A stretch of DNA of 60,000 nucleotides from assembly GCA_044892525.1 (NCBI GenBank), contig CM097885.1:1800001-1860000 (forward strand). The letters are read 5' to 3'. Origin of the DNA: Schmidtea polychroa (Eukaryota). How positions within the stretch are numbered: position 1 is the first letter of the stretch; each line of letters starts with the position of its first letter. A program made the translations under genes and the position numbers. Below are positions 36,403 through 56,600 of the stretch, piece after piece. Under the pieces are notes generated by a model. That model saw nothing but the letters and a program-made list of their open reading frames with translations. It searched no databases and was not told where the DNA came from.

Positions 36403-38347
36403 AGTAGGTAGATAGTGGCCTACGGGAACAATTACCCCCCCCCGGGGGGGGGGGGGGGTTTGTTCCCAAATTTTTATTACGCAATTGTTCCCAACTCATT
36501 TTTTGCTTTCAGGGATTTTTGGTCCAAATTTTTTTTTATCACACTATAGTGAGGGGGTCTTGATGGTCCTGGGATTTTCAATACAAATTAAATTTTTCTA
36601 TACAAAAATCCGACTATCAATAAAAAAGTCAAGGATTATTCACACTATAGTGAGGGGGTCTCGATGGTCCTGGGATTTTCAATACAAAAAATTTTTTCTA
36701 TACAAAAATCCGACTACCACTAAAAAAGCCAAGGAATTTTCAGACTATAGTGAGGGGGTCTCGATGGTCCTGGGATTTTCAATACAAAAAATTTTTTTCA
36801 ATACAAAAATCCGACTACCACTAAAAAAGCCAAGGATTATTCACACTATAGTGAGGGGGTCTCGATGGTCCTGGGATTTTCAATACAAAAATTTTTTTTC
36901 AATACAAAAATCCAACTACCACTAAAAAAGCCAAGGATTATTCACACTATAGTGAGGTGAGTCTCCTTGGTCCTGGGATTTTCAATACGAAAAATTTTTT
37001 TCTATACAAAAATCCTACTATCAATAAAAAAGCCAAGGATTTATCACGCTATAGTGAGGTGAGTCTCCTTGGTCCTGAGAAATAGGTGGTCTACACTAAA
37101 AAACGTGGTAAATTTTTCAATTACAGTAAATTACGGTCCAAATTTTTCAATTAAAGTAAATAATGGTTCTAAAAATTAAATTAAAGTTAATTATGGCTCA
37201 AATTTTTCAAATAAGGTAATTATGGTTCTAAAAATTAAATTAAAGTTAATTATGGCTCAAATTTTTTAATTAAAGTAAATAATGGTTCTAAAAATTAAAT
37301 TAAAGTAAATTATGGTTCTAAAATATTAAATTACAGTAAATTATGGTCCAAATTTTTCAATTAAAGTAAATAATGGTTCTAAAAATTAAATTAAAGTAAA
37401 TTATGGTTCTAAAATATTAAATTACAGTAAATTATGGTCCAGATTTTTCAATTAAAGTAAATAATGGTTCTAAAAATTAAATTAAAGTTAATTATGGCTC
37501 AAATTTTTCAATTACAGTAAATAATGGTTCTAAAAATTAAATTAAAGTAAATTATGGTTCTAAAATATTAAATTACAGTAAATTATGGTCCAAATTTTTC
37601 AAATAAGGTAATTATGGTTCTAAAAATTAAATTAAAGTTAATTATGGCTCAAATTTTTCAAATAAGGTAATTATGGTTCTAAAAATTAAATTAAAGTTAA
37701 TTATGGCTCAAATTTTTTAATTAAAGTAAATTATGGTTCTAAAATATTAAATTACAGTAAATTATGGTCCAAATTTTTCAATTAAAGTAAATAATGGTTC
37801 TAAAAATTAAATTAAAGTAAATTATGGTTCTAAAATATTAAATTACAGTAAATTATGGTCCAGATTTTTCAATTAAAGTAAATAATGGTTCTAAAAATTA
37901 AATTAAAGTTAATTATGGCTCAAATTTTTCAATTACAGTAAATAATGGTTCTAAAAATTAAATTAAAGTAAATTAAGGTTCTAAAAAATTAAATTAAAGT
38001 TAATTAAGGTCTAAATTTAAAATTAAGTAATCAATGGTAAAAAATTTTAAATAAGTAATAATTTTTAAATAAGTAAATTAAAGTAATAATTTTTAAATAA
38101 GTAAATTAAAGTAATGTAATAAGTAAATTAAAGTAAGATTTTAAAATTTATTAACAAAAAGTTGAAGGTGTTTGAGAATTGAAATTTTTTAATGGAAATT
38201 TTTATGAAATATTTTTTTAAGTAATTTTTAATGGAAATTTTTATGAAATATTTTTCAATGATAATTTTAGATGGAAATTTTTAAGATAACTTTTAATGAA
38301 AATTTTTATGAAATATTTTTCAAAGTCAAATGAAAATTTTAACGAAA

Positions 38348-38378
<31 letters not shown>

Positions 38379-38392
38379 AAAAATAATAATAA

Positions 38393-38423
<31 letters not shown>

Positions 38424-38503
38424 ATATCGACCAAATACATAAAAATGAACTAGACACATAAAACACAAACAATTAACAAATGTAAAGATATAAAATTTAT
38501 TCA
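36403..38503 (+). repeat. Left TIR (2101 bp): terminal C/G hairpin, ~100-bp and ~30-bp tandem arrays
   Basis: Reverse complement of 51793-53479 apart from repeat copy number. Confidence 0.95.
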
Positions 38504-38509
38504 ATAAAA

Positions 38510-41500
38510 TTAGTCCTCATCGGACAAAATAACGTCATCGATATCGATGTCATCTTCTTCATTAAATTCTTCCTCATCTTCTCCAAAATCTTCATTTAAT
38601 TCTTCCTCATCTTCTCCATCATTTTCTCCATCATTTTCTCCATCATTTTCTGAAACATTTTCTGCAACAATTTCTCCAACATTTTCTCCAATATTTAATT
38701 CACTTAATCTTACATGCCCATATGCAAGACTAGCGTTTTTCCCCACCCAAACCCTTTTGTCATCTTTGTTTGTTAGTGCTATTTTTGTGTTTTTAATTGT
38801 AAAAATTTGATGATTTTTGCTTGTTATTTTAGTCTGAGGAACCGAAAAAATCTGGTTAGTGTTATAACAATCCAGGTATGACTGATGTTTTATGTCACTA
38901 CCTTTCAATGTTACACCTTTAGCCTTTTTTGTTTCCTCATCACCCAACAAGCTATAACATTTAGGTCTAAGAAAAACCCACTCCTTATATTTAAGACCTT
39001 TATTCTCGTCTTTGAACTTTCCAATGACTGAATCAAGGTTCTTACTATATAAGGAATGACAACTATTGTAATTGGAAGTATCTAATAAATTATCTCGAAT
39101 CATTGCAGGTAAAAGAACCTCAAGTTTGCAGTTAATGACTTCGAGGAAAAAAGAATCTGTATCACCTGCAACGATATTAATTTTACAATTAAACTCATTG
39201 CGAAATGATTCCAGATCCTTATATTGCAATTCATACATTCTAAGTTTAGATAGATCAAGTACAGATTGACCAATGTAACTCGGTCTATCTAAACATATAG
39301 AATCTGAATTCAATAGTGTTGCAATTAAATTATCAGCTATTTTAATAGATTTTTTAAAAGTCGGTTTTGACGAATATTTAACTAATTTACCGGCAGTTGT
39401 ACAAAGACGAAGATTCATTCTTCTCTTTAAATTTTCAACTGTTTTGCCGTATAAACTGTTATTTAGCAATTTATAATAATTTTTATCTAAGTTATTTACG
39501 CTTTTTGATCTTAATTCGGTATTTGTATCTATATATTTTTTAAAAATTGGTGATTGCTTAAATCTTACACCTCTATTTACACGTGTTACTTTAACACCAA
39601 GTTCTAAATATAATTTTAATAATCTCCAATGAATAACATAATTAGATTTTGGAAGATGAGTTAATAATAATTTTTCAACCTTAGACCCAGCAGGTTTCAT
39701 TTTTTCAGCAGCTACAGGGAAATCATCCAACTTATCATGAAGCTCAGAAGGAATTACAAGATCAACTTCAAGTGTGTATCCATAAGACAAAGATTCAAGA
39801 TTTAAATTCCTACATTCATCCATTATTTTATCAAATCCATCAAGAACCCAACAAAATTCGCCACAAGGTAATGATTGACTTAAAGCCCACCCATAAAGAT
39901 TATTAATATCTATATAAAGTAACTCGGTGTTCTCGTCGGTTTTTACGTAATGCTTATTCACAAAAGTAAGACCGCCTCTTATTCCACCCTCATAAAAGCT
40001 AAACATTTCGTTTTCAGTTATGAGTTCAATTGGTTCATTTAAAGACATTAATGCAGAAGACCAAGACATGCCTGGAATTCCGAAATAATTCAAAGGTTCT
40101 AATCTATTGTGAGCAATTGATTTCAACCTAAACTGATGAAAGAAATCAGCCAAAAGAAAACAATCAAGTTTTAGGTAGATCATCATATAATCTAATAAAG
40201 TTCTGCAATTAGATTCTACCCAAATCTCCTGAGCTTTTTCATACTCAAGCTCAGTGACACCCTCCCAGATTGGTGGTAATTCATACGTAGTTTGTAGAAC
40301 ATCTAAAGAAGTGGCGAAATTATAAGGGAAGATTCCTTTTTCACATACTATGGTGCCAGAAAAAGCAGAATTAGTAAAAGGCAAAGAATTCAAAGTTTTG
40401 ACTGCTTTAGCCAAAGAATCATTGACAAATTGATATGAATCAATGAATCTTATGCTAATTTTGCCTAAATGAGCAATCAAAGATATAAATTTTTCCGTAG
40501 TTATTGGGATGCACCCTAAATTCCAATTTTTAAATTTATTTAATCCATATTTAAGTATATGATGCATATCGTATCCCTTCAAGTTGTGAAATACGATAGG
40601 CAAAATTTTATTTATTTTTCTATTTACGTTACATGTGCTACAAGCTGCACCCAAGTATTTGCCCGTAAAATGATCGTGATCTCTAACAGGATCCACGATA
40701 GATTTCAAACAAAGATAACAAACCGTTGAATTAATGAATTGTTGTTGCTCATTTTTAGTTAATTTAATCATTGGTTTCCTACCCATTTTATAATAAAAAG
40801 GAAGAACCTTATTTAATGCTATATCCTCTATAGCACTTAAAAAACTCTCGACGCAATCTAAACCTATAAACTGTTGATAGGATTTAGATCCGTCAAAGTT
40901 ATTTACTAGTAAAAGACCAGCAGATATTGGCATGTGTCGCTGAAAATGAACATTATCAGAAGGTAAAATAGCCTCAAAATCGGCATAAACTACGAAAGGA
41001 GGAGTTACTGTTTTCGACCAGTCAGTAAACTGTAAGAATTTATTTTCAGGGAAAGTATAAAGAGTAGTTCCTAATTGATTGCGTTTGCATAATATTTCAT
41101 GTTTTTCTAGTGCGTTTCTATTGTTAAAACCATTCAAACAACGATGACACCATATTGATCGTATGCGTGTAGGACAACTAGTGTTTATGTGGCAATTCAG
41201 TAACCTATTTAAATTGCTTATAGCAATGTAATGGAAATTGTTCCCTTTATTTAATAATAGTAAATTAATTACTGTTCCATTTAAAACTTTGGAACGATGT
41301 ATAATGTCTAAATGGGGGTGTTTTAAAACGTAATTATCTGTTAATTGTTTGTTATTGTCATAAGAAAAAACATTAATTATTAAACCAGGATTTTTGGCCT
41401 CGAATTTTCTAATATCTTTTAATTTCATTGGTAAGTCTAATGGATTATATATTAACTCAGATAAATTATAACTGGATGTTCTATTTCTATATTGTTTAAT

Positions 41501-44013
41501 AACTTCATCATATTTTAAAATAGCTAAAATGCTATATAAAAAACACGAATCGTCGGTGTTTTTTACATTAATTAAGCATTTTTTATTTTTTAGACAAGTA
41601 GGTAGTTCAATGAAACTCCTACCACTTAATCTACTTAGCCTACTTATCTTTGTTATGGTGAAGTGAATTTCAGTTATTTTTTTTATGATCCAGCTACTTC
41701 CTAACTCTGTGATATTACTTATTTTCTCGTTTAGTTCTCTAATGCCTTCGTCAAAAAATGAGGCAGTTAAAGGTTTTGCGTAATTCGAAATATTATTAAC
41801 CTTTATTTCCCCGTCTTTTTCAAATTCGATTGTTATTCCGAATTGAATTTTGACGGAGCCTAATTCGTTAATAATATCTCGTAATTTTATAATTAATTGT
41901 TCTGGAAATATTATTTCCTTTATATTCAAGTTACTTGTATTTAGACTTAAAATTTGATGTGTACCCCTTAAATCTTTTTGTACTATGGGTACATTACCTC
42001 CTATTTGTACATTAGTAGTCGAAGAGTCGAGTGAAAGATTATCAAATTCATTATTGGGTTCGCCTACATCCCAAGAGTCGAGTGAAAGATTATCAAATTC
42101 ATTATTGGGTTCGCCTACATCCCAAGAGTCGAGCGAAAGATTATCAAATTCATTATTGGGTTCGCCTACATCCCAAGAGTCGAGTGAAAGATTATCAAAT
42201 TCATTATAGGATTCATCAACTAATCCGACCTGGGATTCAACAAAAGGCAATCCATCATTGGATTCAGCAAAAGACAATCCATCATCGGATTCAGCAAAAG
42301 ACAATCCATCATTGGATTCAGCAAAAGACAATCCAACATTGGATTCAGCAAAAGGCAATCCATCATTGGATTCAGCAAAAGACAATCCAACATTGGATTC
42401 AGCAAAAGGCAATCCATCATTGGATTCATCAACTAATCCGACCTGGGATTCAACAAATGTATTTAATTTAATTTTTTTATTAGTAGTATTTATTTCAATA
42501 GTTGAAGGACGTTTAAAAATAACATCTTTTTTAGAATTGAACCTATCTAAATGTTGTTTATGCTTATTATAAAAAACGCTATATGTTAAGGGCTCGCTAA
42601 TCTTACATATGGGGCATATAAAAAAAGTTTTATTATAGTATTTTTTAGAATAATAATTCTCCATTATAGAATGGCAATTATTATGTTCTTTCGACGAACA
42701 ATAATTTGGATAAAGTATACCTAAAATATATACATTTAAAAATTTGGCTAAAACATTTGATAAAAATAATACTATTAAAATTTTCTTATAATTTTGCATG
42801 TATGCATCCAATCAAAATTAATTATTTGCTATAAATGATAATTTAATGAAATAAATTTAACAAAAAATGTCTACTATAAATAGTATCCTATTAGAAGAAA
42901 ATAGTACATCAGTTATAGGTATGGTATGTAAACCTCCTATTCAATTCCTTCAATATAATATGTACTATTTGAAATATCCTATTACTTATTCGTTCAAGGT
43001 AATTTTTTATTTAATTATTTAATATTAATTTGTTATAGGAACCAGTTAATTTAAAAACATGTCAATTCAATATTCAAATTGGAGATATTGGGGAAGAAGA
43101 TAGAAAAAATCTTGGAGAAATTCTTAAATTAATTAATAAAGAAATGATTTTTAATGAAAAATTTACATTTATCAATTGTGAAAAAGGGTGTAAATTAGAC
43201 GAAGATAAAAAATCAAAAGTGCGAATACTTATTCAAGGAGTCAAGATAAATGGAGTTATAATTAAACCAATTTGGAAAATTACAAATGTTTTTGAATAAA
43301 TATTTAAGTGTTATTTTAAATGTTGTTGAAAAAAATTTTAAAGTTAATAAGTATTTAATAAGGGTCAGATTATTATTAAAGAGTACTGCATGCTCACTGC
43401 AGACTATTATGTAGCTACGTGCTCACTGTAGACTACATTATTATATTAAAGAGTACTGCATGCTCACTGCAGACTATTATGTAGCTACGTGCTCACTGTA
43501 GACTACATTATTATCATTATAAAAAAAATTTGCGAGGGATTTCCCCTTATTTCAAAATAAATATCATTAATAATAATTTCATTATAAAATATTATTTAAA
43601 AATGTTAATAATTTCATCATTATAAAAAAATTTTACGAGGGATTTCCCCTTATTTCAAAATAAATATCATTAAAAAATAACATTAATAATAATTTCATTA
43701 TAAAATATTATTTAAAAATGTTAATAATTTCATCATTATATAAAAAAAAAATTTTTACGAGGGATTTACCCTTATTTCATTATAAAATTTTATTTAAAAT
43801 ATTAGTAAAATATTAGATTATAAAAAATGAGTGAATTTCCTCTTAAGATCAAATAAAATTTTATTAAAAAATTATATAAAAATATCATTAATAATCATTA
43901 AAAAATATTAGTAATTTCATCTTATAAAATTTTATAAAAAATTGATAAAAATACTTACATTTGACATTTTTGTTCATAGTTTCATCCATTTCAGAATTTT
44001 TGTTCATTTTCAT
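38510..44013 (-). CDS. polB: Protein-primed family B DNA polymerase; predicted exons 43959-44013 and 38510-42720 (~1421 aa)
   Basis: Exo motifs VVYADFEA, FHNLKGYD, YLKLD; pol motifs YIDINNLYG, YKLLNNSLYGK, GDTDS, PKCY, KAKGV. The main ORF is certain; the upstream exon is predicted from a phase-matched GTAAGT donor and TTTTAG acceptor. Confidence 0.93.
42867..43299 (+). CDS. Unannotated 130-aa two-exon protein (42867-42998, 43039-43299); possible OB-fold ssDNA-binding protein
   Basis: AAAAAATG start, AAG|GTAATT..TTATAG|GAA 40-nt phase-0 intron, 87 open codons in exon 2, stop within AATAAA; function is inference. Confidence 0.7.
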
Positions 44014-44427
44014 AGTTTTTTAGTTTCAATCTTTTTTATCTAAAAAATAATTAAATTTTAATAATTAAAAAATAAAATTCTTACAATCCTTGGTACTAGC
44101 AAATTATGAGCAAATTTTAAAAACAAATCATTTATATACTTCTTCTTCTACTTAATACATTACGTAATAATTAAAGGATTAAATTTGATACCATGCGTAA
44201 TAATTAAAAGATTAAATAACTTACATAATAATTAAAGGATTAAATAACTTGCATAATAATTAAAGGATTTAATACCTTACATAATAATTAACTTAATTAA
44301 AGATTTAGTTTAATAATCAACTAAAATTTAAATTTTAATAATCAATTATATTGAATTAATAATCAACTAAAAATTTATTGAAATAATCAGCTAAAATTTA
44401 TTGAAAACAACTTTTTATTATAAAAAT

Positions 44428-44806
44428 TTATTTCATTGACTTTAACCAAGCCAAACAATGTTGTCCACATGTTTTTGTTATAGGGTTTTGGTAACGTATT
44501 CGATTGTATTCAATCGGCATTGACATTGATTGTAGTTTATTGATTAATATAGGTGGATAATAGAATCCCATTGGATCAAATGCATATATTTTGTCTGGTT
44601 TCACGTATACTGCAAGCCAATGTTCACCATTCAGATTAGCAGATTGAGTATTTACAATTATTGCTTTGTTGACATCTAAATAAGGTATTTTGTCTAATGG
44701 GAAAACACCTAGAAATTCTTTTCCTAGTAATTTTCTTCCGATAACATGTATCTGAATAGAACTAAATTAATAATAATTAAATAATTTAAATTAATTCTTA
44801 CTTCAT
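44428..44806 (-). CDS. Adenain-like maturation cysteine protease, 112 aa (exons 44802-44806, 44428-44761)
   Basis: FLGVFPLD, IVNT...GEHW, FDPMG, Q......CGQHC; 40-nt GTAAG..TTTAG intron after ATGAA. Confidence 0.92.
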
Positions 44807-44840
44807 ATTTGATTAATTGATTTTCGATATTTGGTTTATA

Positions 44841-46064
44841 TTATACCAAAACAGTACGAGTAGATGTAATTTGAATTTCTTTTTCAAAAACTCCATATAC
44901 GATTACAGAAACAGCTTCAGTAAGTGAAGATGCGAATTTAATATCTAATCGCAAATTTCCACTTTGTGGTAACTGACTTTGATGAAGATCAAAATCTGGT
45001 GCCAATACGAATGTAAAGAATGGATACTTGCTCTTAAAATCAGACATGGTGATACCACAATTCATATTTTTATTTAGATAACCCATATTTCTAATAATCG
45101 ATTGCATATAACTTGTACTATAATCATCATTCTCAAAATCTTGACTATATTTTTCGCGATAATCACTTCCTTTACTTAAAGTTATGGACTTGACATTAAA
45201 GTGATCAAATAAAGAAAATGATTCTGAAAACGATCCACTAAATCTTTTACTAGATTGAAATGCAACAAGTATAAAATTAGGTAATCGTCTATCTCCAAAT
45301 ATTTGTTCTTTATAAAAAGAGGAAGAACCAATAGGTAATGAGAAATCAACAACTTCTTTGCTTCTTAAAGGATAAATTGCATTTTTGGTAGACAGACCAA
45401 TTTGATGTCCTGCCAAAACCGATGGTTCAACACGAACTCTTCTAACCATTAATTTTGCGTCTAATAATAAAATTTTCGGTTCAATTTTCGCACAAGTTAA
45501 ACTAAGTGTTGGATTTGATCTTGTTAATTTAATTTGAACACTAACACCTGGTAGTAAATATTTAGGTTGATCAAAGAAATCAAATTGAAGTGGGGAACAT
45601 AAAGAAAAGGATTTTGATTTTTCAATCCATGTTTTTCTCGTAAGATCTTTGTTAGTATACCCCATTCCACCTAAAGATGTTCGTTTAGTATCTCCGTCAT
45701 AATTTATAAGTGTTTCAATTAATGCTTTGTGGGCAAATCTATCATTTGATCCTTCAACTTTGATTGAATTAAAAATTAATTCAACATCTTTAAAAAGGGT
45801 TTGGAAGAAGAAATTATTTGGAATTACTTCTGATTCGCCTAAATTCTCACCTAAATTATTAACAACTTTCAATTGAATATATAACAAAGTATCATTCAAA
45901 TCTAAATATTCAGTCTGCGATCCATTTATGTAAAATTGAATCGAAGAAGAACCGGCATCTGTAATTGAATTTCTTGGGTATACATCTTCAAATGCTCCAT
46001 GTTCAATCACTGCTTGGGGAGAAGGTCTATCAAAAAGACATAATTCTGATTTAGCACTAATCAT
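44841..46064 (-). CDS. Major capsid protein (double jelly-roll, PY)
   Basis: KSELCLFD..PQ N-terminus, YLDL..T.LY..LKV, QPKYLLPGV, GNLRLDIKF typical of Polinton MCP. Confidence 0.92.
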   Translation of the reverse strand: MISAKSELCLFDRPSPQAVIEHGAFEDVYPRNSITDAGSSSIQFYINGSQTEYLDLNDTLLYIQLKVVNNLGENLGESEVIPNNFFFQTLFKDVELIFNSIKVEGSNDRFAHKALIETLINYDGDTKRTSLGGMGYTNKDLTRKTWIEKSKSFSLCSPLQFDFFDQPKYLLPGVSVQIKLTRSNPTLSLTCAKIEPKILLLDAKLMVRRVRVEPSVLAGHQIGLSTKNAIYPLRSKEVVDFSLPIGSSSFYKEQIFGDRRLPNFILVAFQSSKRFSGSFSESFSLFDHFNVKSITLSKGSDYREKYSQDFENDDYSTSYMQSIIRNMGYLNKNMNCGITMSDFKSKYPFFTFVLAPDFDLHQSQLPQSGNLRLDIKFASSLTEAVSVIVYGVFEKEIQITSTRTVLV

Positions 46065-46459
46065 TTTTCAAAGATGGTACCATATCCTTTCATTCTTTTG
46101 TTTATATGTTTCTTCATAATTTTTCGGCGTTTAAGTATTCCGCCTTTTTGTTCTTTATCATTTTTAAATACATCGGATACTTTATTAATTACTTCAGGTA
46201 AATGTTGCATCACAGCTGGTAATGATTCTTTAATTTCAGAAATTGCATTTGATTTTAAAGCAGGCAAGATATTTGCATTGTTATTTATTACGTCATTAGC
46301 TGTTTTCATACCAAAATTTCCTATTCGTCTAAGAATTGGGAGTGCAAATCTACCTATTGTCTTCAACCAACCGGTTCCATATTGTTTACCAACAAAATAT
46401 GGTAAATCACCACCCGATTGGTTACTACTATAAAAATGTATTATGTCAGGATTACTCAT
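46061..46459 (-). CDS. PW-like virion core / putative membrane-active protein
   Basis: NQSGG, QYGTG, QKGG, MKGYG putative adenain-type sites; amphipathic GWLKTIGRFALPILRRIG. Confidence 0.75.
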   Translation of the reverse strand: MSNPDIIHFYSSNQSGGDLPYFVGKQYGTGWLKTIGRFALPILRRIGNFGMKTANDVINNNANILPALKSNAISEIKESLPAVMQHLPEVINKVSDVFKNDKEQKGGILKRRKIMKKHINKRMKGYGTIFEK

Positions 46460-47468
46460 TTATTTTACGAAAATGTAATGTCAAGTATGTTTTATCTTCT
46501 TTTCCAAATATATATTTTCCACTATCATCTCGTATATTGATTTCTATATTGTTTATATATGAAGACGATACAGGTAAGTACATTGGATTCTTTTCAATTA
46601 TTTGTACTAAATCATCTTTTTTATGTTTTTCCACCCAAATACATTTCAAAAGAGGGACCAATGTATCACCAACAATAATAGGTTCGATAATATTTGTATA
46701 GATCATCAATTGTTGATTGCGTTGTAATACTTCAGGTTCTTTAAAACCAATAATAAGTTTGTCAGTATATGCTTCTTCTAATAATCCTAAACTATTGGCT
46801 AAAAATTTACTAAATTGAACTTTACTGACATCATCATCCATTACAATTTTAACGATTTTTCCTTTTTGAATATCAACAGATTTAAATGGACGAGGATAAA
46901 AGAGTGATAGTTGATCATTTATTTGTGAAAGATCTGTAATGATATTTTCTTCGAATGTATCTGTATACTCGACATCGTAATAATATTGTATAGTTAGTCG
47001 AATTGTATCAAACTTTATTTTTCGATTATTTGGAGGAATAGTGATTTGGTTCAAGGCTTTTTTAAAAGTTATTTCTTTTTCTGAAAATCCCAATTTCTGC
47101 GCTTCTTTAATACTATCGAATTCTACTTTAAAAGGAAAATATTTACAATTAATGTTCAATGTATTTCCATCAATATATATTAAATAAAATGGAGAGTCGT
47201 GACTGATTGTATATTCATTTTTTTCTTGGTTAAAGTAAAAGTATTCATAACTTGTATGTAATACACTTTTACTATATTTGACATTTGAATTACTGTAAAA
47301 AGGAAAATAATTATACACAAAGGTAAAGTCCATGAGAGCTACTTCCCATTCACCATCCAAGTAAATAGGATTTTGAAATTCGACATTAAATTTACCAGCT
47401 TCATTATTTGGATGAGTCTGAGGACAACTATTAGAAGGTAAATTCACATAAAAATCTTTTTTAATCAT
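46452..47468 (-). CDS. Minor capsid (penton, PX) paralog 2
   Basis: FYVNLPSNS...P.N....F...F..PIYLDGEWEVAL; IYTNIIEP..VGD..VPLL; IEINIRDDSG..LHFR. Confidence 0.9.
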   Translation of the reverse strand: MIKKDFYVNLPSNSCPQTHPNNEAGKFNVEFQNPIYLDGEWEVALMDFTFVYNYFPFYSNSNVKYSKSVLHTSYEYFYFNQEKNEYTISHDSPFYLIYIDGNTLNINCKYFPFKVEFDSIKEAQKLGFSEKEITFKKALNQITIPPNNRKIKFDTIRLTIQYYYDVEYTDTFEENIITDLSQINDQLSLFYPRPFKSVDIQKGKIVKIVMDDDVSKVQFSKFLANSLGLLEEAYTDKLIIGFKEPEVLQRNQQLMIYTNIIEPIIVGDTLVPLLKCIWVEKHKKDDLVQIIEKNPMYLPVSSSYINNIEINIRDDSGKYIFGKEDKTYLTLHFRKINE

Positions 47469-48486
47469 TTATTTTACGAAAATGTAATGTCAAGTGTGTT
47501 TTTGTATCTCTACTAAATTTTATTAATTTTCCACTATCATCTCGTATATTGATTTCAATGTTGTTTATAGAAGAATTAGAAATTGGTAGATACATTGGAT
47601 TCTTCATTTCTAGTTGCACAATTTCTCCTTGTTCATATTTTTTTATCCAAATAGATTTCAATAACGGAACTCTTACATCTCCAACAGTCAATGGTTCGAT
47701 AATATTTGAGTAAATAAACATTTGTTGATGATGATTAAATAACTTTGGAATTTTTGTTCCAATAATTTCTTTCTCTGTAAATGTTTGTTTCTTTAATCCC
47801 AATGTTTTTGTTAAATTTTTATCAAAGGTTATTGATGAAATGTTATCAGCAAGACTTATTTTAACCAATTCATTATTTTGTATTTTTAAATCTTTAAAGG
47901 GAGACGGATTAATTGTCATTAACTGACCATGTATTTCAGATAAAGTATTGATGTATAGTTCATCTTCGAAATAATGTTCAAATTTTGTTTTTTCAACAAC
48001 ACTTATAATTATACCAAATTGATCAATTGTTTTATCTTCTGTAAATTTTGGTAATTTAATTCGCAAATGATCACTATCACTAATAACCGATACTGATTTT
48101 AATCCAAATTTAATAGCATGTTCAAAATCTGGAAACGTTATTTTAAATGGAACATGTGGACAAACAACAACCAAATTCTCATATCTTTCAATGAACATGT
48201 CAACTTCAGGAGTATTTTTAGGATTTATTACTTCAAAGGTTCGATTTGAATTATTTATTCTAAAATATTTAATTTCTTCATCCATCTTTACTTTTTCATA
48301 TTGTATCAATGAATTACTGTAATAAGGAAAAGTATTATACACAAAGGTAAAGTCCATGAGAGCTACTTCCCATTCACCATCCAAGTAAATAGGATTTTGA
48401 AATTCGACATTAAATTTACTAGCTTCATTATCGGGGAAAATAAGAGGACAACTATTAGAAGGTAAAATAATATAAAAATCTTTCAT
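47461..48486 (-). CDS. Minor capsid (penton, PX) paralog 1
   Basis: Same N- and C-terminal motifs as the adjacent paralog. Confidence 0.9.
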   Translation of the reverse strand: MKDFYIILPSNSCPLIFPDNEASKFNVEFQNPIYLDGEWEVALMDFTFVYNTFPYYSNSLIQYEKVKMDEEIKYFRINNSNRTFEVINPKNTPEVDMFIERYENLVVVCPHVPFKITFPDFEHAIKFGLKSVSVISDSDHLRIKLPKFTEDKTIDQFGIIISVVEKTKFEHYFEDELYINTLSEIHGQLMTINPSPFKDLKIQNNELVKISLADNISSITFDKNLTKTLGLKKQTFTEKEIIGTKIPKLFNHHQQMFIYSNIIEPLTVGDVRVPLLKSIWIKKYEQGEIVQLEMKNPMYLPISNSSINNIEINIRDDSGKLIKFSRDTKTHLTLHFRKIND

Positions 48487-48491
48487 AATAT

Positions 48492-49640
48492 TTATTTAAT
48501 CAATTGATTTTCAGATATCCAAGATGGAGTTTCATATCCATGCCATTTAACATAGTATTGTTTATATTTACCATCTTTTTTGGTTTTTAAAATCTTTTGA
48601 ATTCTAAATATTGTAGGAGCAGGAATTACTTGGAGTTCTTGTTCATAGAATTTACCAGTGATTGGTTTGTTTTCATGATCAACTATCACATACATGACAG
48701 GATTCTGTTTTGTATCGATTTTAAAAATTTGATATACTTCATCACTCCAATTATTATCAAAGTTTTTGATGAATGGTGAAGAATTGATTTTACTAATTCT
48801 TACATGATCACCAACCTTGTATTTCGGTTTATTGATTTTTTCTGACTTTGTTTGATTTTTAGTAAAATCTGCAGGTGTTTGTCCTTTTAATCCTCTGTGT
48901 GGTGAATGATTGTAACTGAAAATAATTTTTGGCAAAACATTTATCCAAGTTTTATTACCTTGATATACAAAATATTTTTTCAAGCGTTCTCTTAAAGTTC
49001 GATTAAATCGTTCTACGTGAGCAGCTTTGAACTGAGAAAATACCGAGTAATGGTTTATTCCTTTGATAACCTCTTTAACTTTGCTGTTATAAAATTCTTT
49101 ACCTAAATCATATATTTAAAAATTAATTAATTAAATTTAATTACCTAAATCCGTTTGTAAATTAATAGGTTTACCATCTGCAAACATTTCTTTTATCGCA
49201 TCAGCCATTTCATTTGCAGATTTAGTTTTTGTAGGAACAGCACGAGCATATCTATTAAAAACATCTATACAAGTCAGAATATATTTGTACCCCTTGTTAA
49301 TTTTTGAATAAGGTATCATTTCCATCAAATCCATTTGCCATACATCATTGTTTCCAATTGTTTTGTATGGTCTTGTTGGAAAACGTTTCAACATTGGTTT
49401 ATTTAAACTATATGCTAATTGATTAGATAACCATTTCTGAGTTTCTTTCTTTGAATTATTCACTCGTTTTGTTAATTTTTCTACGCCACCAAAACCATCT
49501 GGATCTTTTGGGTTTGTCCATATGGTTTTTAACTTTTTCTCTATTGTTTTCACTTTTTTCACTTTTGTTTTCACATTTGTTTTCACTTTTGTTTTCATTT
49601 TTTCCACTTTTGTGTTGGTTTTGTGATACGTTTCCTTCAT
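48492..49640 (-). CDS. int: Retroviral-like (rve) integrase with C-terminal chromodomain; exons 49145-49640, 48492-49102
   Basis: Removing the 42-nt intron gives WQMDL...QTDLGKEFYN...HVERFNRTL (intact DDE); YYVKWHGY..PSW chromodomain. Confidence 0.95.
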
Positions 49641-49709
49641 TATTACAACAAGTTGTCAAAATATTAAAATCTACAATATTTTTATTTGGTAATGAACTCT
49701 TGATACCCA

Positions 49710-50036
49710 TTAAGAACTTAATGATGAGATTGCACTAATTGCAGATAAGACTATAGGAATTAGTGCACCCAAGAACCCTCCTTTTTGTTTATATATTATC
49801 TTTCTCATTAGACGACGATTTTTTGTATCAACTAGAGATAAAAGTGATCTTTTATGTCTTTGCAATACTAATCTTTTAGCTTTAGTTATATTTACATTAC
49901 CGCGGACAACATTTATAATAACTTCAAGTAAATCATCAATAACAAATGATGGAAAAGACTGTAAAATTGATATTCGTTTCGAATTTGGTGCCTTTATTAA
50001 AGCATTAAAATATGGTAAGCTCCGTTCAAATTTCAT
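49710..50036 (-). CDS. Basic core protein with adenovirus pX-like C-terminus, 108 aa
   Basis: QKGG|FLGALIPIVLSAISAISS resembles pX GGFLPLLIP; first ATG at 50036. Confidence 0.75.
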   Translation of the reverse strand: MKFERSLPYFNALIKAPNSKRISILQSFPSFVIDDLLEVIINVVRGNVNITKAKRLVLQRHKRSLLSLVDTKNRRLMRKIIYKQKGGFLGALIPIVLSAISAISSLSS

Positions 50037-50065
50037 TATTATTATTAATTTACGCGACGGTTTGT

Positions 50066-50218
50066 TTATAATTTGATCCACTTCTTGATTTGTTTCTTAG
50101 TTTTTGTAGTTTTTGTACCTTTTGATCCACTTTTTGTTTTCTTTGTACGTTTTGTTTTCTTGGTAATTTTCTTCGAAACAATTGGAAGATTTTTAACAAC
50201 TACTTTTTTAAATGACAT
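50066..50218 (-). CDS. Unannotated 50-aa very basic (Lys/Thr-rich) protein
   Basis: MSFKKVVVKNLPIVSKKITKKTKRTKKTKSGSKGTKTTKTKKQIKKWIKL fills the gap between the ATPase and pX-like genes. Confidence 0.65.
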   Translation of the reverse strand: MSFKKVVVKNLPIVSKKITKKTKRTKKTKSGSKGTKTTKTKKQIKKWIKL

Positions 50219-50237
50219 GATTAATTTTATTTAGTTT

Positions 50238-50861
50238 TTAGTTTTGTTTATAAATCGTAACACCGTTTATATTAAAAATATCAGTTCTAATACGCATATC
50301 ATCTGGACATTGTTGTGTAAAATCAAAAAATAAATATCCATGAGGAATTTTTGTTGCATCTTGGAATGAATCAATCAAAAATTTTCTATTATTTGGATAA
50401 GCTTGTCTTGCAAGAAAATCTATTATTGTTTGATCTCTAGGATTTTTGAAAATAATTAAATATTGGACATTTAAATTACGTGTTCTATGACTTCCACCTT
50501 GATGAAAAAGATTTTGTGTAATGAAAATAACTGTAACTCCACAATGTCTACTGATTTTTGTAAATAAATTATTAAAATCTTTTTCTTTATTTGCTTCCTG
50601 GTACAGATCATCGATAATAATAACATCACCTTGACGTAATCTAGATGACCAATTTTTATCAAATCCTTTAATTATTGTCATTTTTAATTTACAGAAACTG
50701 TTTTGAGTCAATCCATGTTCTTCATCTGCACCTCGATGCCAATATATTTTATTAAATTTAGATTTAAACATGTTTGATTGTAATAAATTACATACAAATA
50801 AAGTTTTCCCGCTTCCACTAGGTCCAACTATTTGATATACTGCGTCATTTCTTAATTCCAT
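50238..50861 (-). CDS. FtsK/A32-like genome packaging ATPase
   Basis: Walker A GPSGSGKT, Walker B VIIIDD, SRH, ITQNLF, FKNPRD. Confidence 0.95.
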   Translation of the reverse strand: MELRNDAVYQIVGPSGSGKTLFVCNLLQSNMFKSKFNKIYWHRGADEEHGLTQNSFCKLKMTIIKGFDKNWSSRLRQGDVIIIDDLYQEANKEKDFNNLFTKISRHCGVTVIFITQNLFHQGGSHRTRNLNVQYLIIFKNPRDQTIIDFLARQAYPNNRKFLIDSFQDATKIPHGYLFFDFTQQCPDDMRIRTDIFNINGVTIYKQN

Positions 50862-50911
50862 TTTTTAATTAAATTATTTTATTTAATTTGTTTATAATTA
50901 CAATAATTAGA

Positions 50912-51388
50912 ATGATCAGCAACATTAATTATAGAGGAAGATGTGTAGTTAATGGAATGAAGTTTCCATCAGGAAAACCTCAACATGTCGTGGACAGAAG
51001 TGGAAAATATCCAATTTTATTCTTCAAGAGCGGGAAATGTAGGATAATGGGATGTAAGAAACCATTACAGGAAGGCGATCTCAAATATCAGATTCAAGAT
51101 TTACAAATCCAATCAATTACATTAACGCTAGATATGGGTACATGCATTGATTTAAATGCATTGTCAAGGAAAACCGATAGTTACTACGAGCCTGAAATAT
51201 TTCCAGCTTTACGTATTCTCAAGTATAACCCCCTATGTGTAAATGTTTTTTCAAGTGGGAAAGTTGTTATATTAGGGATTAAAACATTTGATTATTTTAA
51301 TCAAATTCAAGAAATTCAGAAATTCATTAAATCATTAACTATAAATATCACAACAAATGAAGAAATATTGGAATATTTATTAAGTTAA
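50912..51388 (+). CDS. TATA-box-binding protein (TBP)-like protein, 158 aa
   Basis: DLQIQSI...IDLNAL...YEPEIFPAL...VNVFSSGKVVILG matches TBP repeat 2; ISNI and ILFFKSGKCRIMG match a shortened repeat 1. Confidence 0.85.
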   Translation: MISNINYRGRCVVNGMKFPSGKPQHVVDRSGKYPILFFKSGKCRIMGCKKPLQEGDLKYQIQDLQIQSITLTLDMGTCIDLNALSRKTDSYYEPEIFPALRILKYNPLCVNVFSSGKVVILGIKTFDYFNQIQEIQKFIKSLTINITTNEEILEYLLS

Positions 51389-51451
51389 TTAAATTAATTT
51401 AATTAATTGTGTTTAAATTAACTGAATATCTACAATAACAAAAATTCAAAA

Positions 51452-51799
51452 ATGGATGACGATAAGCAAGCTTACATATTCCAGACTATATTAACGAAGA
51501 TGGAAGAATTGTTCCCGAATATAAAGAACAGACTTTCATATTGTGCTCCGGAATTATTAGCTTATAGAATCAAGCAATTAACTGGGATCAATATAGAAGA
51601 ACTTATACGAAGACATTTCGAATCTGTACAAGAATCAAGATTTAAATGCATAGACGATTGTGAAGTATGTATGGATCCGATGAAATTACCATGTCCGTTT
51701 AGATGTAGATGCTGCCAAGAATATAAGATGAAAGAAGTTGTTCATATTTTACTAGCAGAATTAAGAAGAGCTTATTACAAGCAAATATTGGATGAATAA
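51452..51799 (+). CDS. Hypothetical Cys-rich protein, 115 aa
   Basis: AAAAATG start, CIDDCEVC...CPFRCRCC cluster, stop within AATAAA. Confidence 0.7.
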   Translation: MDDDKQAYIFQTILTKMEELFPNIKNRLSYCAPELLAYRIKQLTGINIEELIRRHFESVQESRFKCIDDCEVCMDPMKLPCPFRCRCCQEYKMKEVVHILLAELRRAYYKQILDE

Positions 51800-51871
51800 A
51801 TTTTATATCTTTACATTTGTTAATTGTTCGTGTTTTATGTGTCTAGTTCATTTTTATGTATTTGGTTGATA

Positions 51872-51912
<41 letters not shown>

Positions 51913-53479
51913 TTTCGTTAAAATTTTCATTAAAAGTTATCTTAAAAATTTCCATCTAAAATTATCATTGAAAAATATTTCATAAAAATTTCCATTAAAA
52001 ATTACCTAAAAAATATTTCATAAAAATTTCCATTAAAAATTACTTAAAAAAATATTTCATAAAAATTTCCATTAAAAATTACTTAAAAAAATATTTCATA
52101 AAAATTTCCATTAAAAAATTTCAATTCTCAAACACCTTCAACTTTTTGTTAATAAATTTTAAAATCTTACTTTAATTTACTTATTACATTACTTTAATTT
52201 ACTTATTTAAAAATTATTACTTTAATTTACTTATTTAAAAATTATTACTTATTTAAAATTTTTTACCATTGATTACTTAATTTTAAATTTAGACCTTAAT
52301 TAACTTTAATTTAATTTTTTAGAACCTTAATTTACTTTAATTTAATTTTTAGAACCATTATTTACTGTAATTGAAAAATTTGAGCCATAATTAACTTTAA
52401 TTTAATTTTTAGAACCATTATTTACTTTAATTGAAAAATCTGGACCATAATTTACTGTAATTTAATATTTTAGAACCATAATTTACTTTAATTTAATTTT
52501 TAGAACCATTATTTACTTTAATTGAAAAATTTGGACCATAATTTACTGTAATTTAATATTTTAGAACCATAATTTACTTTAATTTAATTTTTAGAACCAT
52601 TATTTACTTTAATTAAAAAATTTGAGCCATAATTAACTTTAATTTAATTTTTAGAACCATAATTACCTTATTTGAAAAATTTGAGCCATAATTAACTTTA
52701 ATTTAATTTTTAGAACCATTATTTACTTTAATTGAAAAATTTGGACCGTAATTTACTGTAATTGAAAAATTTACCACGTTTTTTAGTGTAGACCACCTAT
52801 TTCTCAGGACCAAGGAGACTCACCTCACTATAGCGTGATAAATCCTTGGCTTTTTTATTGATAGTAGGATTTTTGTATAGAAAAAAATTTTTCGTATTGA
52901 AAATCCCAGGACCAAGGAGACTCACCTCACTATAGTGTGAATAATCCTTGGCTTTTTTAGTGGTAGTCGGATTTTTGTATTGAAAAAAAATTTTTGTATT
53001 GAAAATCCCAGGACCATCGAGACCCCCTCACTATAGTGTGAATAATCCTTGGCTTTTTTAGTGGTAGTCGGATTTTTGTATTGAAAAAAATTTTTTGTAT
53101 TGAAAATCCCAGGACCATCGAGACCCCCTCACTATAGTCTGAAAATTCCTTGGCTTTTTTAGTGGTAGTCGGATTTTTGTATAGAAAAAATTTTTTGTAT
53201 TGAAAATCCCAGGACCATCGAGACCCCCTCACTATAGTGTGAATAATCCTTGACTTTTTTATTGATAGTCGGATTTTTGTATAGAAAAATTTAATTTGTA
53301 TTGAAAATCCCAGGACCATCAAGACCCCCTCACTATAGTGTGATAAAAAAAAATTTGGACCAAAAATCCCTGAAAGCAAAAAATGAGTTGGGAACAATTG
53401 CGTAATAAAAATTTGGGAACAAACCCCCCCCCCCCGGGGGGGGGGGGTAATTGTTCCCGTAGGCCACTATCTACCTACT
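51793..53479 (-). repeat. Right TIR (1687 bp)
   Basis: Reverse complement of left TIR, with fewer 30-bp units. Confidence 0.95.
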
Positions 53480-53574
53480 TTAGTTAGTACGTGGTATCAT
53501 GTTGTAAGTATTTGTTAGCACCTAGTTAAAAAATAATCAGTAACCGATTGTTGGTAACTGTTGAATTATTATTA

Positions 53575-53685
<111 letters not shown>

Positions 53686-56600
53686 CATTAAAATTTCCAT
53701 TTAAATTTTCATTATAAATTACATTTCTCAAAAAAGTTGGTGGTTATTCAATCTTTTGATAATAAATAAATAATTTTACTTTAATTTACTTATTTAGCTT
53801 TAATTTAAAATTTGAACCATTGGATACTTAATTTTAAATTTTGAACCTTAATTTACTTATTTAAAATTTTTAACTTTAATTTACCTAATTATTTTTATTT
53901 CTTAATTTTACACCATAATTTACTTAACAACTAAATATAATCCTTATTTTCATATTTAACCAATAATTTCATGTGGTCATCTGGTTGTCAGTGCTTGGTA
54001 TCTAGTTGACAGTGCTTAGTACTAGGTATCTAGTTGTTGGCTGGTTGTTAGTACTTAGTTGTTGGTTGTTGTTGATTGTAAGTACTTGGTATCTAGTTGT
54101 TAGCTGGTTGTTAGTACTTAGTTGTTGGTTGTAAGTAGTTGGTATCTGGTACCTAGTTGTTAGTTGGTTGTTGGTTGTTAGTACTTGGTAGCAGGTAACT
54201 GGTTGTTAGTACTTGGTATCAGGTAACTGGTTGGTTGTAGGTATTTAGTAGTTAGTTGATGATGCTTAGTACCTGGTTGTTGTCGGTTGTGAGTACTTGG
54301 TAGTTGGTTAATAATGCTTAGTACCTGGTTGATGTTGGTTGTAAGTATTTGGTAGGTGGTAGTTAGTTGTTAGCTGGTTGTTGTCGGTTGTTAGTACTTG
54401 GTATGTGGTTGTAGGTACTTGGTTGATAATGCTTAGTAGCTGGTTGTTGTGGGTTGTGAGTAGTTGGTATCAGGTTGTTAGTAACTAGTTGTAGGTATCT
54501 GGTTGTAAATACATGTTCGTAAGTTACTGGTTGTTGATACTAAGTTGTTAGTTTGTTGTTGAATTATTATTAAAATTTGTCTTTGAAAAATAATTCATAA
54601 AAATTTTCATTAAAAATTATCTTAAAAATTTCCATCTAAAATTATCATTGAAAAATATTTCATAAAAATTTCCATTAAAAATTACCATTGAAAAATAATT
54701 CATTAAAATTTCTATTAAAAATTACTTAAAAATTATTTCATAAAAATTTTCATTAAAAAATTTCAATTCTCAACCAGCTTCTATTATTTTGTAATTAAAT
54801 TTTAAAATCTTACTTTAATTTACTTATTTAAAAATTTTACCATTGATTACTTAATTTAAAAATTATTACTTTAATTTACTTATTTAAAATTTTTTACCAT
54901 TGATTACTTAATTTAAAATTTGGACCTTTATTTACTGTAATTTAATTTTTAGGACCATTATTTACTGTAATTTAATTTTTAAGAACCATAATTAACTGTA
55001 ATTTAATTTTTAGACCCATTGCTTACTGTAATTGAAAAATTTGAACCATAATTTACTGTAATTCAAAATTTTTGACCATAATTAACTGTAATTTTATTTT
55101 TTAGAACCATTATTTACTTTAATTGAAAAAATTTACCACGTTTTTTAGTGTAGACCACCTTTTTCTCAGGACCAAGGAGACCCACCTGAATTGACCTAGA
55201 AAAATCCATGCTTTTTTTAGTGGTAGTCGAATTTTTGTATTGAAAATATCCTGAGACCTTAAATTGCCACTGTTTTTTAGTGTAGACCACCTTTTTGTAT
55301 TGAAAATATCCTGAGACCTTAAATTGCCACTGTTTTTTAGTGTAGACCACCTTTTTCTCAGGACCAAGGAGACCCACCTGAATTGACCTAGAAAAATCCA
55401 TGCCTTTTTTAGTGGTAGTCGGATTTTTGTATTGAAAATATCCTGAGACCTTAAATTGCCACTGGTTTTTAGTGTAGACCACCTTTTTCTCAGGACCAAG
55501 GAGACCCACCTGAATTGACCTAGAAAAATCCATGCCTTTTTTAGTGGTAATCGGATTTTTGTATTGAAAATATCCTGAGACCTTAAATTGCCACTGTTTT
55601 TTAGTGTAGACCACCTTTTTGTATTGAAAATATCCTGAGACTTTAAATTGTCACTGTTTTTTAGTGTAGACCACCTTTTTCTCAGGACCAAGGAGACCCA
55701 CCTGAATTGACCTAGAAAAATCCATGCTTTTTTTAGTGGTAGTCGGATTTTTGTATTGAAAATATCCTGAGACCTTAAATTGCCACTGTTTTTTAGTGGT
55801 AGTCGAATTTTTGTATTGAAAATATCCTGAGACCTTAAATTGCCACTGTTTTTTAGTGTAGACCACCTTTTTCTCAGGACCAAGGAGACCCACCTGAATT
55901 GACCTAGAAAAATCCATGCCTTTTTTAGTGGTAGTCGAATTTTTGTATTGAAAATATCCTGAGACCTTAAATTGCCACTGTTTTTTAGTGTAGACCACCT
56001 TTTTGTATTGAAAATATCCTGAGACCTTAAATTGCCACTGTTTTTTAGTGTAGACCACCTTATTCTCAGGACCGAGGAGACCCACCTGAATTGACCTAGA
56101 AAAATCCATGCTTTTTTTAGTGGTAGTCGGATTTTTGTATTGAAAATATCCTGAGACCTTAAATTGCCACTGTTAAATTAATTAAGGATTAAATTTTTAC
56201 TACATGTTATAATATTGAATTCTTATAATGTCATAAGTCTCCTATAGACCTAATTTTCTTCTAGATCAAGACTAAACTGCTATCCTACCATTCTGCAGAG
56301 AAATTAGAATAATACATCACTGGTACCTTCGACTCGTATTTTGGCATAACTGATAAAACCTTAAAGTTAAATCGGCACATACAGACTCAAGTGCTTTACG
56401 TCTGGCGAAAGCAAGAGCCAAGGCTATGAGACCTAGAAGAGTAAGAACCTAAATTTTACTTACCGAATAAGTGACATTTGGATAAGAATCGTCAACTATA
56501 CGAATAACGACTCATATTAGTATACTTTGTATTTCTATAAACAAGGTTCCTTTTGTAAATGTTTTGTATTAAATAAATATCCTGTATCCTAGCGTAACTT

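Follow-up and report, generated by a model that had tools for sequence, protein, structure and literature searches.

TATA-binding protein (TBP)-like factors encoded by viruses are already known. In herpesviruses of the beta and gamma groups, a viral TBP-like factor (BcRF1 in Epstein-Barr virus, ORF24 of Kaposi's sarcoma-associated herpesvirus and murine gammaherpesvirus 68, UL87 in human cytomegalovirus, U58 in human herpesvirus 6) acts at a TATT box and drives the late genes; according to the same article, these factors are large, share ~10% identity with TBP and work in a six-protein complex (PMC4893493). TBP folds are likewise encoded by nucleocytoplasmic large DNA viruses (NCLDV) and, as B263R-type proteins, by asfarviruses; these are cytoplasmic or large viruses, and their proteins have two repeats or are longer. 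Sporadic TBPs in unrelated Cymbomonas elements are mentioned in PMC10675990. For Polinton-like viruses, the maps in Figure 5 of Starrett et al. 2021 (PMC8502044) carry the gene label 'TBP' for MELD viruses with an adintovirus-like PolB, and the available part of that article holds no discussion of it. Here, a TBP-like gene is described that is located in a complete Polinton of Schmidtea polychroa. The element lies in a stretch of 60,000 nt of contig CM097885.1 (positions 1,800,001 to 1,860,000, forward strand), which was analysed as a whole and is called the window below. The gene is as follows.

50912..51388, plus strand: TBP-like gene, an ATG-to-stop open reading frame (ORF) of 158 amino acids (aa), a single open frame without an intron

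This ORF almost certainly encodes a conserved, element-borne protein with the TBP fold. The Pfam family PF00352 (TBP) matches it with E 3.4e-16 (59.3 bits, cutoff 22.9; best stretch aa 64-130), and all 35 distinct chains found in a sequence search of the PDB are TBPs (best 1mp9_A, 2.1e-13). The PDB matches span query aa ~59-146 only, yet hit both repeats of the target TBPs; aa 1-63 scanned alone matched no Pfam family. An AlphaFold2 (AF2) model with 51 family members as input (pLDDT 93.9, pTM 0.82) shows repeat 1 (aa 1-58) as four strands with zero helices. Repeat 2 (aa 59-145) is whole in this model, running from a strand and a helix through three more strands to a long helix, and a short additional helix comes after it. 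In Foldseek against the PDB, 44 of 44 matches at E<=0.001 are TBPs, and the next, unrelated one follows at E 0.03. The TBP alignments extend over ~170 columns (both halves) with TM 0.60-0.69 and 20-26% identity, the curved beta-sheet of the predicted model superposing on the whole TBP core. The best matches in BFVD are NCLDV TBPs, e.g. from Heterosigma akashiwo virus (1.6e-8), Terrestrivirus and Aureococcus virus; a B263R homologue (2e-4) is also found, and weak fold matches to U58, BcRF1 and UL87 (E 5e-3 to 3.5e-2) rank below these. An earlier note on this DNA had read the ORF as a Polinton's own TBP-like protein and its C-terminal half as TBP repeat 2, quoting the strings YEPEIFPAL (aa 92-100) and VFSSGKVVILG (aa 112-122). 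Both strings are present and both readings hold; the TBP fold, whose absence from profile or structure searches the note had named as grounds for dropping the idea, was recovered by Pfam, the PDB sequence search and Foldseek alike.

The anatomy of repeat 1 was derived from alignments (A2, A3) with canonical eukaryotic and archaeal TBPs and from the AF2 model. Canonical TBP consists of two complete alpha/beta repeats (S1-H1-S2-S3-S4-S5-H2 each) with two pairs of DNA-kinking Phe. In the window protein, only repeat 2 is whole, and the first intercalating-Phe position is occupied by V26. The earlier note had described repeat 1 as shortened and apparently lacking the first helix and one Phe, which is right as far as it goes; helix H2 and ~5-6 residues of the N-terminal stirrup are missing in addition to helix H1. 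Compared with cellular TBP (eukaryotic TBP and TBP-related factors, archaeal TBP; PF00352), the shared features are thus the fold, the whole repeat 2 with its YEPE[IL]FP motif and both Phe, and in repeat 1 the strand S1, which has N4 as its invariant Asn, together with the NPKRF proline (P23) and the F-x-SGK strand (F38). The differences are the lost helices and stirrup residues, an unconserved first Phe and, as judged by alignment, R44, M46, N111 and S68 at DNA-facing positions; the Polinton protein moreover belongs to a separate clade and is carried by a mobile element.

The conservation pattern across 51 family members is uneven between these sites. The first Phe position holds Y (12), I (11), F (8), C (8), L (5), V (4), K (2) or H (1), while the other three kinking positions (F38, F97, F113) are Phe in 51/51. 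The C-terminal stirrup motif, which by alignment corresponds to the site clamped by TFIIB/Brf1 in canonical TBP, is kept (E93 in 50/51, E95 in 51/51). R44, M46 and N111 are each present in 51/51 sequences and S68 in 49/51. In canonical TBP, V/T (strand S5 of repeat 1) are aligned with R44/M46, and a Leu two positions before the last repeat-2 Phe is aligned with N111; S68 occupies the position of the S1' Asn. Substitutions at this Leu position of canonical TBP alter TATA specificity.

The protein belongs to a large and diverse family. Of 140 candidates from a word-indexed search of 5.8 billion proteins, 123 are relatives at E<=1e-3; with few exceptions these are 144-160 aa long and have ~90% query coverage and 40-68% identity. 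Because the relatives cover ~90% of the query, the odd N-terminal half is conserved as well. A profile search of 1.84 billion cluster representatives gave 3262 matches at E<=1e-3, of which 697 reach <=1e-10 and 56 reach <=1e-30; the best 150 are mostly single full-length matches in short proteins. The alignment of 51 family sequences has 19 invariant columns and a mean column identity of 34%.

In the host assembly (781 Mb), a search with the TBP-like protein yielded 4206 first-look candidates. All 150 scored genomic copies, which had been selected by protein identity, are 99-100% identical and 149/150 are without a stop. These near-identical copies show that the element family has been amplified massively and recently. 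At least two further TBP subfamilies, of 170 aa and 154 aa, occur in the genome; they are 51-58% identical to the window protein, have the same head-to-head layout with the packaging ATPase gene, and their ATPase is 83-84% identical to that of the window. With copies 99-100% identical, intactness in this genome says little about selection, and the gene could in principle be an inert passenger that is intact merely through the youth of its copies. The near-identity of all 150 scored copies fits such a passenger. It is nevertheless scarcely credible, considering that the family is conserved to ~25-35% identity in syntenic elements from many metagenomes, with the 19 invariant columns among 51 sequences.

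Linkage to other Polinton genes was assessed by tblastn of the window element proteins against 80 metagenome loci and two viral loci. The 80 loci were kept from a metagenome scan that found 91 relatives among 177 pattern matches. At least one other Polinton gene is present in 36/80 metagenome loci (count from the tblastn table), and the remainder are mostly contigs of 1-3 kb. The linkage check proposed in the earlier note thus came out in favour of a Polinton gene. By gene, the matching loci number 24 for the ATPase, 20 for the integrase, 13 for the major capsid protein (MCP), 12 for ORF341-like, 9 for protein-X-like, 6 for ORF132 and 4 for PolB. In three loci of >5 kb (L020, L024, L089), tblastn found no other element gene. 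Gene order is conserved in L023, L032, L048, L056 and L074, and the position of the TBP gene differs between relatives: it can lie upstream of the ATPase, point away from it in a divergent pair or come after the MCP gene. Among IMG/VR viral contigs, 76 pattern matches contained two weak relatives, both ordinary two-repeat TBPs. As judged from these sequence comparisons, the TBP-like gene belongs to the conserved, syntenic gene content of a large Polinton clade. The note's statement that TBP lies outside the Polinton core set needs amending to this extent, TBP not being foreign to all Polintons.

A side observation concerns the subset of loci in which the TBP-like gene comes after the MCP gene. 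In L042, L047, L050, L053 and L055 (also L041, L043 and L051), a conserved ~190-aa protein starts 15-19 nt past the TBP-like stop codon; it could be a lineage-specific companion.

The element-linked TBPs occur in three grades. The full grade comprises two-repeat proteins of ~172 aa (L083, L085-L088, L090, L094) or 242-247 aa (L084, L091). Members of the intermediate grade (163-171 aa; L065, L070, L071, L073-L075, L077) carry the family signatures (NINY or NANF, SGKFRxMGC) and a shortened stirrup, yet keep H1 and part of H2. The short grade includes the window protein. A host ORF encoding a 212-aa two-repeat TBP (L113) was considered as an intermediate form and rejected: there are no Polinton genes within 8.5 kb, and it looks like a host paralogue.

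A tree was computed from 39 chosen sequences (174 columns, LG+G4); it is unrooted and holds few cellular TBPs, so that no origin is given by it. The short and intermediate classes form one split (100/99), within which the short class is again one split (100/99). A further group (96/93) unites cellular TBPs with two NCLDV-type TBPs and a host intronless two-repeat TBP-like protein, and the full-length element TBPs make up two groups outside this cellular/NCLDV cluster. The phylogeny suggested in the earlier note therefore sets the short and intermediate proteins apart from the cellular/NCLDV group. On these sequence data, a recent capture of the gene from this host is excluded. The note had also considered a degraded one-off host capture; what was found instead is a diverse family with Polinton synteny, in a separate clade, with 23-37% identity to the host TBP loci over 64-125 aa.

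The second line of evidence is a DNA word found upstream of the genes for capsid, core protein, packaging ATPase, protease and integrase. In relatives diverged to 25-75% protein identity, sense ATAAACA was counted within 120 nt upstream of the start codon and the counts were split by the TBP class of the element. ATAAACA is the core common to the relatives. In 52 unique contexts the preceding base is T in 71% and C in 25%, but never A, and the flanks vary; the resulting box [T/C]ATAAACA amounts to a TATA box whose seventh base is C. The counts are as follows (upstream regions with the box / upstream regions).

Short TBP class: late genes 38/42 (2.15 expected from shuffles; antisense 0); integrase 8/9; TBP gene 1/49 (1.26 expected; antisense 4)
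Intermediate TBP class: late genes 7/10; integrase 2/4; TBP gene 0/8
Full two-repeat TBP class: late genes 0/6; integrase 0/5; TBP gene 0/8

The box is thus common ahead of the late genes and the integrase in the two reduced classes and absent in the full class, in which two elements have TATATAA ahead of the MCP gene instead. R and M at the positions of R44 and M46 are common to the short and intermediate classes, in which the box is present, and are replaced by N/N in the full class, in which it is absent. The distance to the start codon is narrow, mostly 31-41 nt, with 25 unique boxes located in this range from the ATG. The upstream regions of the TBP gene carry other words, in most relatives an ordinary TATA together with an initiator-like word. 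In the short class, an initiator-like word TCA[TC][AT][AT]T lies <=40 nt from the ATG in 29/43 unique TBP-gene upstreams vs 0/40 late ones. TCATAATT is found in 19/51 TBP-gene upstreams vs 0/59 late, canonical TATAWAWR in 18/43 vs 7/40, and the CCAAT box in 14/43 vs 8/40.

These counts bear on the possibility that the box is read by a host factor (e.g. forkhead) or by host TBP, the TBP-like protein having a general or different role in element transcription. The invariant ATAAACA 7-mer does match the forkhead core, and TATAAACA departs from TATAWAWR at one position only. On the other hand, the box is strictly sense (38/42 late promoters vs 0 antisense) and confined to 31-41 nt from the ATG in the 25 unique promoters; such strict orientation and spacing point to a core-promoter element rather than an enhancer-type site. 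Elements with a full two-repeat TBP moreover do without the box (late 0/6, integrase 0/5). We consider a host reader unlikely.

In the window element itself, the minus (sense) strand has 10 TATAAAC sites, all in 44834-50890, vs two on the plus strand, both within PolB. Across the window, the 9-mer TATAAACAA was observed 14 times vs 3.83 +/- 1.81 expected, 0 of 100 shuffles being as high, and 8 of the 14 sites are sense-strand sites of the element. The first T of the box lies 34-35 nt from the ATG in three cases (ATPase, 50-aa ORF, protein-X-like gene) and ~80-100 nt from it in three others (ORF132, ORF338, ORF341). TBP-like gene and ATPase stand head-to-head across a 50-bp intergenic region, and the ATPase box in this region is antisense to the TBP-like gene, 16 nt from the TBP-like ATG. 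No box was found in the 120 nt upstream of PolB. The features of the element and their boxes are listed below.

36403..38319: left terminal inverted repeat (TIR); terminus AGTAGGTAGATAG... from 36403, TTAGTT before it at 36397-36402
38510..42799, minus strand: protein-primed PolB, main ORF of 1429 aa; PF03175 E 4.9e-32, 111.9 bits (cutoff 25.8) in the C-terminal 796 aa
44428..44766, minus strand: adenain-like cysteine protease, an open frame with a provisional start; PF00770 Peptidase_C5 E 1.4e-5, 25.3 bits (cutoff 21.3)
44834..44840, minus strand: TATAAAC box upstream of the protease frame
44841..46064, minus strand: MCP (ORF407), double jelly-roll, 407 aa; AF2 pLDDT 77.9
46098..46106, minus strand: TATAAACAA box of the MCP gene, first T 42 nt ahead of the ATG
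46061..46459, minus strand: ORF132, conserved small protein with tblastn relatives in 6 loci
46549-46557, minus strand: box of ORF132
46452..47468, minus strand: ORF338, tandem paralogue of ORF341 (47% identical)
47561-47569, minus strand: box of ORF338
47461..48486, minus strand: ORF341, second tandem paralogue
48558-48566, minus strand: box of ORF341
48492..49655, minus strand: rve (retroviral-type) integrase whose tail is chromodomain-like, in two open frames (49137-49655, 48492-49115); PF00665 E 1.2e-8, 35.5 bits (cutoff 32.6)
49785-49793, minus strand: box of the integrase
49710..50036, minus strand: adenovirus protein X/mu-like core protein, 108 aa; PF05829 E 2e-6, 28 bits (cutoff 25)
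50062-50070, minus strand: box of the protein X/mu-like gene, first T 34 nt ahead of the ATG
50066..50218, minus strand: Lys-rich 50-aa ORF, no Pfam family
50244-50252 and 50265-50271, minus strand: boxes of the 50-aa ORF
50238..50861, minus strand: A32-like packaging ATPase, 207 aa; PF04665 Pox_A32 E 7.9e-7, 29.2 bits (cutoff 22.8)
50888..50896, minus strand: TATAAACAA box of the ATPase, in the 50-bp divergent region, its first T lying 35 nt ahead of the ATG
51452..51799, plus strand: ORF115, Cys-rich, downstream of the TBP-like gene; no Pfam family
51984..53479: right TIR; TTAGTT after it at 53480-53485

A private TBP together with a matching variant TATA box ahead of the genes for capsid, packaging and maturation suggests an early-to-late gene switch that belongs to the element itself. 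We put the probability at roughly 0.55 that an early-made private TBP of the element switches on its box-bearing late genes. Under this proposal, host TBP/TFIID would transcribe the TBP-like gene first. The TBP-like protein would then bind the variant boxes and bend the DNA through its three invariant Phe, and its retained C-terminal stirrup would recruit TFIIB and Pol II, turning on the virion and integration genes. Specificity could reside in the invariant, lineage-specific R44, M46, N111 and S68 on DNA-facing strands, such that the element protein would prefer [T/C]ATAAACA and host TBP the canonical word (TATAAAAG). The N-terminal stirrup surface of TBP is contacted by TFIIA, Bdp1 and Brf1 block II. 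With this stirrup shortened and the adjoining helices gone, the TBP-like protein may escape the factors that dock there on cellular TBP. The earlier note had suggested a promoter-selector for the capsid/packaging module; this gains indirect support, in that those genes carry a box specific in strand and position which the TBP gene lacks.

In a bolder form of this proposal, this large Polinton/adintovirus-like clade would have an orthogonal core-promoter code: a TBP reduced in steps (from the full two-repeat form, via one with shortened helices, to one of 145-160 aa whose repeat 1 is all-beta) and with changed R44/M46/N111/S68 would read boxes that host TBP reads poorly, shed control surfaces and fire the virion genes through host TFIIB/Pol II on its own schedule. 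We hold this only tentatively, at somewhat under even odds.

Several points weigh against the proposed switch. 'Early' and 'late' are labels by analogy. Gene starts in the relatives were set at the first ATG in whichever open frame held the tblastn match, and introns were ignored. A TATA-type start ~30 nt past a box that lies 31-41 nt from the ATG would leave leaders of a few nucleotides only. The co-variation of box and TBP type is drawn from perhaps three lineages and could stem from shared ancestry. The ATAAACA core is also compatible with the forkhead consensus RYAAAYA, which makes a host factor a possible reader of the box. R44, M46 and N111 are placed as DNA-facing by sequence alignment and yeast TBP numbering, not by coordinates. 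Finally, the 50-bp intergenic region ahead of the window TBP gene contains no canonical TATA plus initiator at workable spacing.

The retained stirrup, with E93 in 50/51 and E95 in 51/51 sequences and the repeat-1 helices gone, would also fit a decoy or inhibitor that soaks up TFIIB or blocks host TATA boxes and thereby tilts transcription towards the element. A TFIIB sponge, however, needs neither three invariant intercalating Phe nor invariant DNA-facing residues, and it leaves the dedicated box on the element's own genes unexplained. Global inhibition would moreover be costly for an element whose host holds very many near-identical copies of it. A decoy, the other reading offered in the earlier note, is quite improbable in our estimation. 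A co-fold of the TBP-like protein with a TFIIB core (P0258, aa 100-300, 92% identical to the host exon) gave scores of 0.06 and 0.05 and is no evidence either way. The database relative stood in for host TFIIB, the core of which is interrupted by a short in-frame intron; the nearest named relatives of host TFIIB are animal proteins.

A further alternative is that the protein acts not as a transcription factor but as an architectural DNA bender in protein-primed replication, integration or packaging, for example at AT-rich ends. The TBP fold bends DNA, and the gene adjoins the right TIR and the packaging ATPase. In relatives, its position is variable (before the ATPase, divergent, after the MCP gene), and the sole conserved DNA word found is at promoter positions, although no box-like word was sought in the TIRs. 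This role appears very improbable compared with the proposed early-to-late switch.

With regard to known systems, the switch resembles that of the herpesviruses in its proposed logic, namely a virus-coded TBP-like protein and a variant TATA box on late/structural genes with ordinary promoters on early genes. The Polinton protein differs in having 158 aa, a clear Pfam TBP match and the box [T/C]ATAAACA; homologues of the five partner proteins were not searched for. It may work like the herpesvirus system but is not filed as a member of it. With the NCLDV and B263R-type proteins it shares a virus-encoded TBP fold and its best BFVD matches; the two NCLDV-type sequences in the tree, by contrast, group with cellular TBPs.

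The carrier of the gene is a Polinton of the Polinton/Maverick (adintovirus) type: it has PolB, rve integrase, MCP, ATPase, protease, TIRs and a 6-bp target-site duplication (TSD). The element is complete and 17.1 kb long (36403-53479); its termini are AG...CT, and TTAGTT stands on either side of it as a perfect direct repeat of 6 bp. A TSD of 6 bp is a hallmark of Polintons. The TIR arms 36403-37597 / 52285-53479 match over 1195 nt at 99%, and the inner arms, to 38319 / 51984, over 656 nt at 94%. The TBP-like gene is located inside the TIRs (arms 36403-38319 / 51984-53479) and is one open frame, in agreement with the earlier note, which had called it intronless and inside the TIRs. The TIRs consist largely of internal tandem repeats, which read as spurious 120-aa ORFs (36563-36925, 52957-53319); repeat arrays related to them also occur outside the element at ~54.9-56.1 kb (54876-56109).

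As for the individual genes, the Pfam scan of the whole 1429-aa PolB ORF missed PF03175, which was found when the C-terminal 796 aa were scanned alone; a PDB sequence search with PolB gave no match at E<=0.01. The N-terminal third of this ORF contains tandem repeats of acidic peptides (ESNDGLPFAESNVGLSF..., NEFDNLSLDSWDVGEP...), and the ORF also has an acidic tail; a weak Endonuclease_7-like zinc motif is located ahead of the polymerase domain. Between PolB and the protease, 43380-43940 (plus strand) holds short tandem repeats with many plus-strand TATAAA words and no long ORF. The MCP model matches the capsid proteins of PBCV-1 (VIA-align Z 25.0), faustovirus (23.9), Sputnik (21.4) and mavirus (19.6), and its BFVD matches are mainly virophage, adomavirus and NCLDV capsid proteins. 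Pfam matches of the integrase to rve_3 and Chromo are weak and below the cutoff. A penton protein was not identified in the element. At the place of ORF338/ORF341, metagenome relatives and the 170-aa subfamily of the genome have a single gene; the pair is a tandem duplication, in the window subfamily, of a conserved gene that is possibly a virion gene.

The TBP-like gene and ORF115 are the only plus-strand genes of the element. Homologues of ORF115 (32-33% identical) are found at the same position in all four loci of the 170-aa subfamily, and no match was obtained at the single 154-aa locus. ORF115 was rejected as a general companion of the TBP-like gene, with 0 matches among 50 downstream ORFs from metagenome loci.

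Elsewhere in the window, fragments of a hAT-type transposase (13640-15163, minus strand; Dimer_Tnp_hAT E 1.1e-12) and of a reverse transcriptase (20462-21454, minus strand; RVT_1 E 2.5e-8) are present. Elsewhere in the genome, an intronless ORF family of 301-310 aa codes for a TFIIB-like protein that is complete, having a zinc ribbon (PF08271 E 1.5e-10) and a TFIIB cyclin repeat (E 1.2e-10). It has at least 13 copies in two clusters, L108:4680-5585 (minus strand) being G000:C3 near 39.08 Mb and others lying at C3:38.2-39.1 Mb and C1:23.8-24.2 Mb. The family is distinct from the intron-bearing host TFIIB (L105) and from a Brf1-like gene (L101), and one 10-kb view of it contained no Polinton genes.

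Novelty is lower than the earlier note had assumed, given the 'TBP' label in the Figure 5 maps of Starrett et al. 2021. Both cases concern a TBP-like gene in Polinton-like virus genomes and are probably the same broad phenomenon. The MELD 'TBP' differs in being, in the available part of the article, a label without structure, family analysis or promoter link; one supplementary file of PMC8502044 contains neither 'TBP' nor 'TATA'. A full-text literature search, with subscription journals and figures outside its coverage, returned no paper analysing a Polinton TBP, and neither TBP nor a TATA element turned up in word searches of four papers on Polintons, PLVs and giant transposons (PMC12220804, 10.64898/2026.06.19.733378, PMC10748475, PMC6431247). 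What is new is the minimal TBP architecture with its reduction series, the place of TBP among the conserved genes of Polintons and a promoter code of two classes.

It is an open question whether Polintons/Mavericks behave like true viruses that follow a regulated programme of expression. A conserved private TBP, a box reserved for the capsid, packaging, protease and integrase genes and a host-type promoter on the TBP gene provide a concrete model of such a programme, made of one small protein and one 8-bp word. The graded loss of the repeat-1 helices is a natural experiment on which parts of TBP serve DNA binding and TFIIB recruitment and which serve regulation only. If the protein/box pair is orthogonal to host TBP/TATA, it could furnish a compact switch for eukaryotic gene expression. 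If the proposed code is true, no functional TBP smaller than this protein would be known, and the protein would parallel, in compact form, the machinery that herpesviruses use for their late genes.

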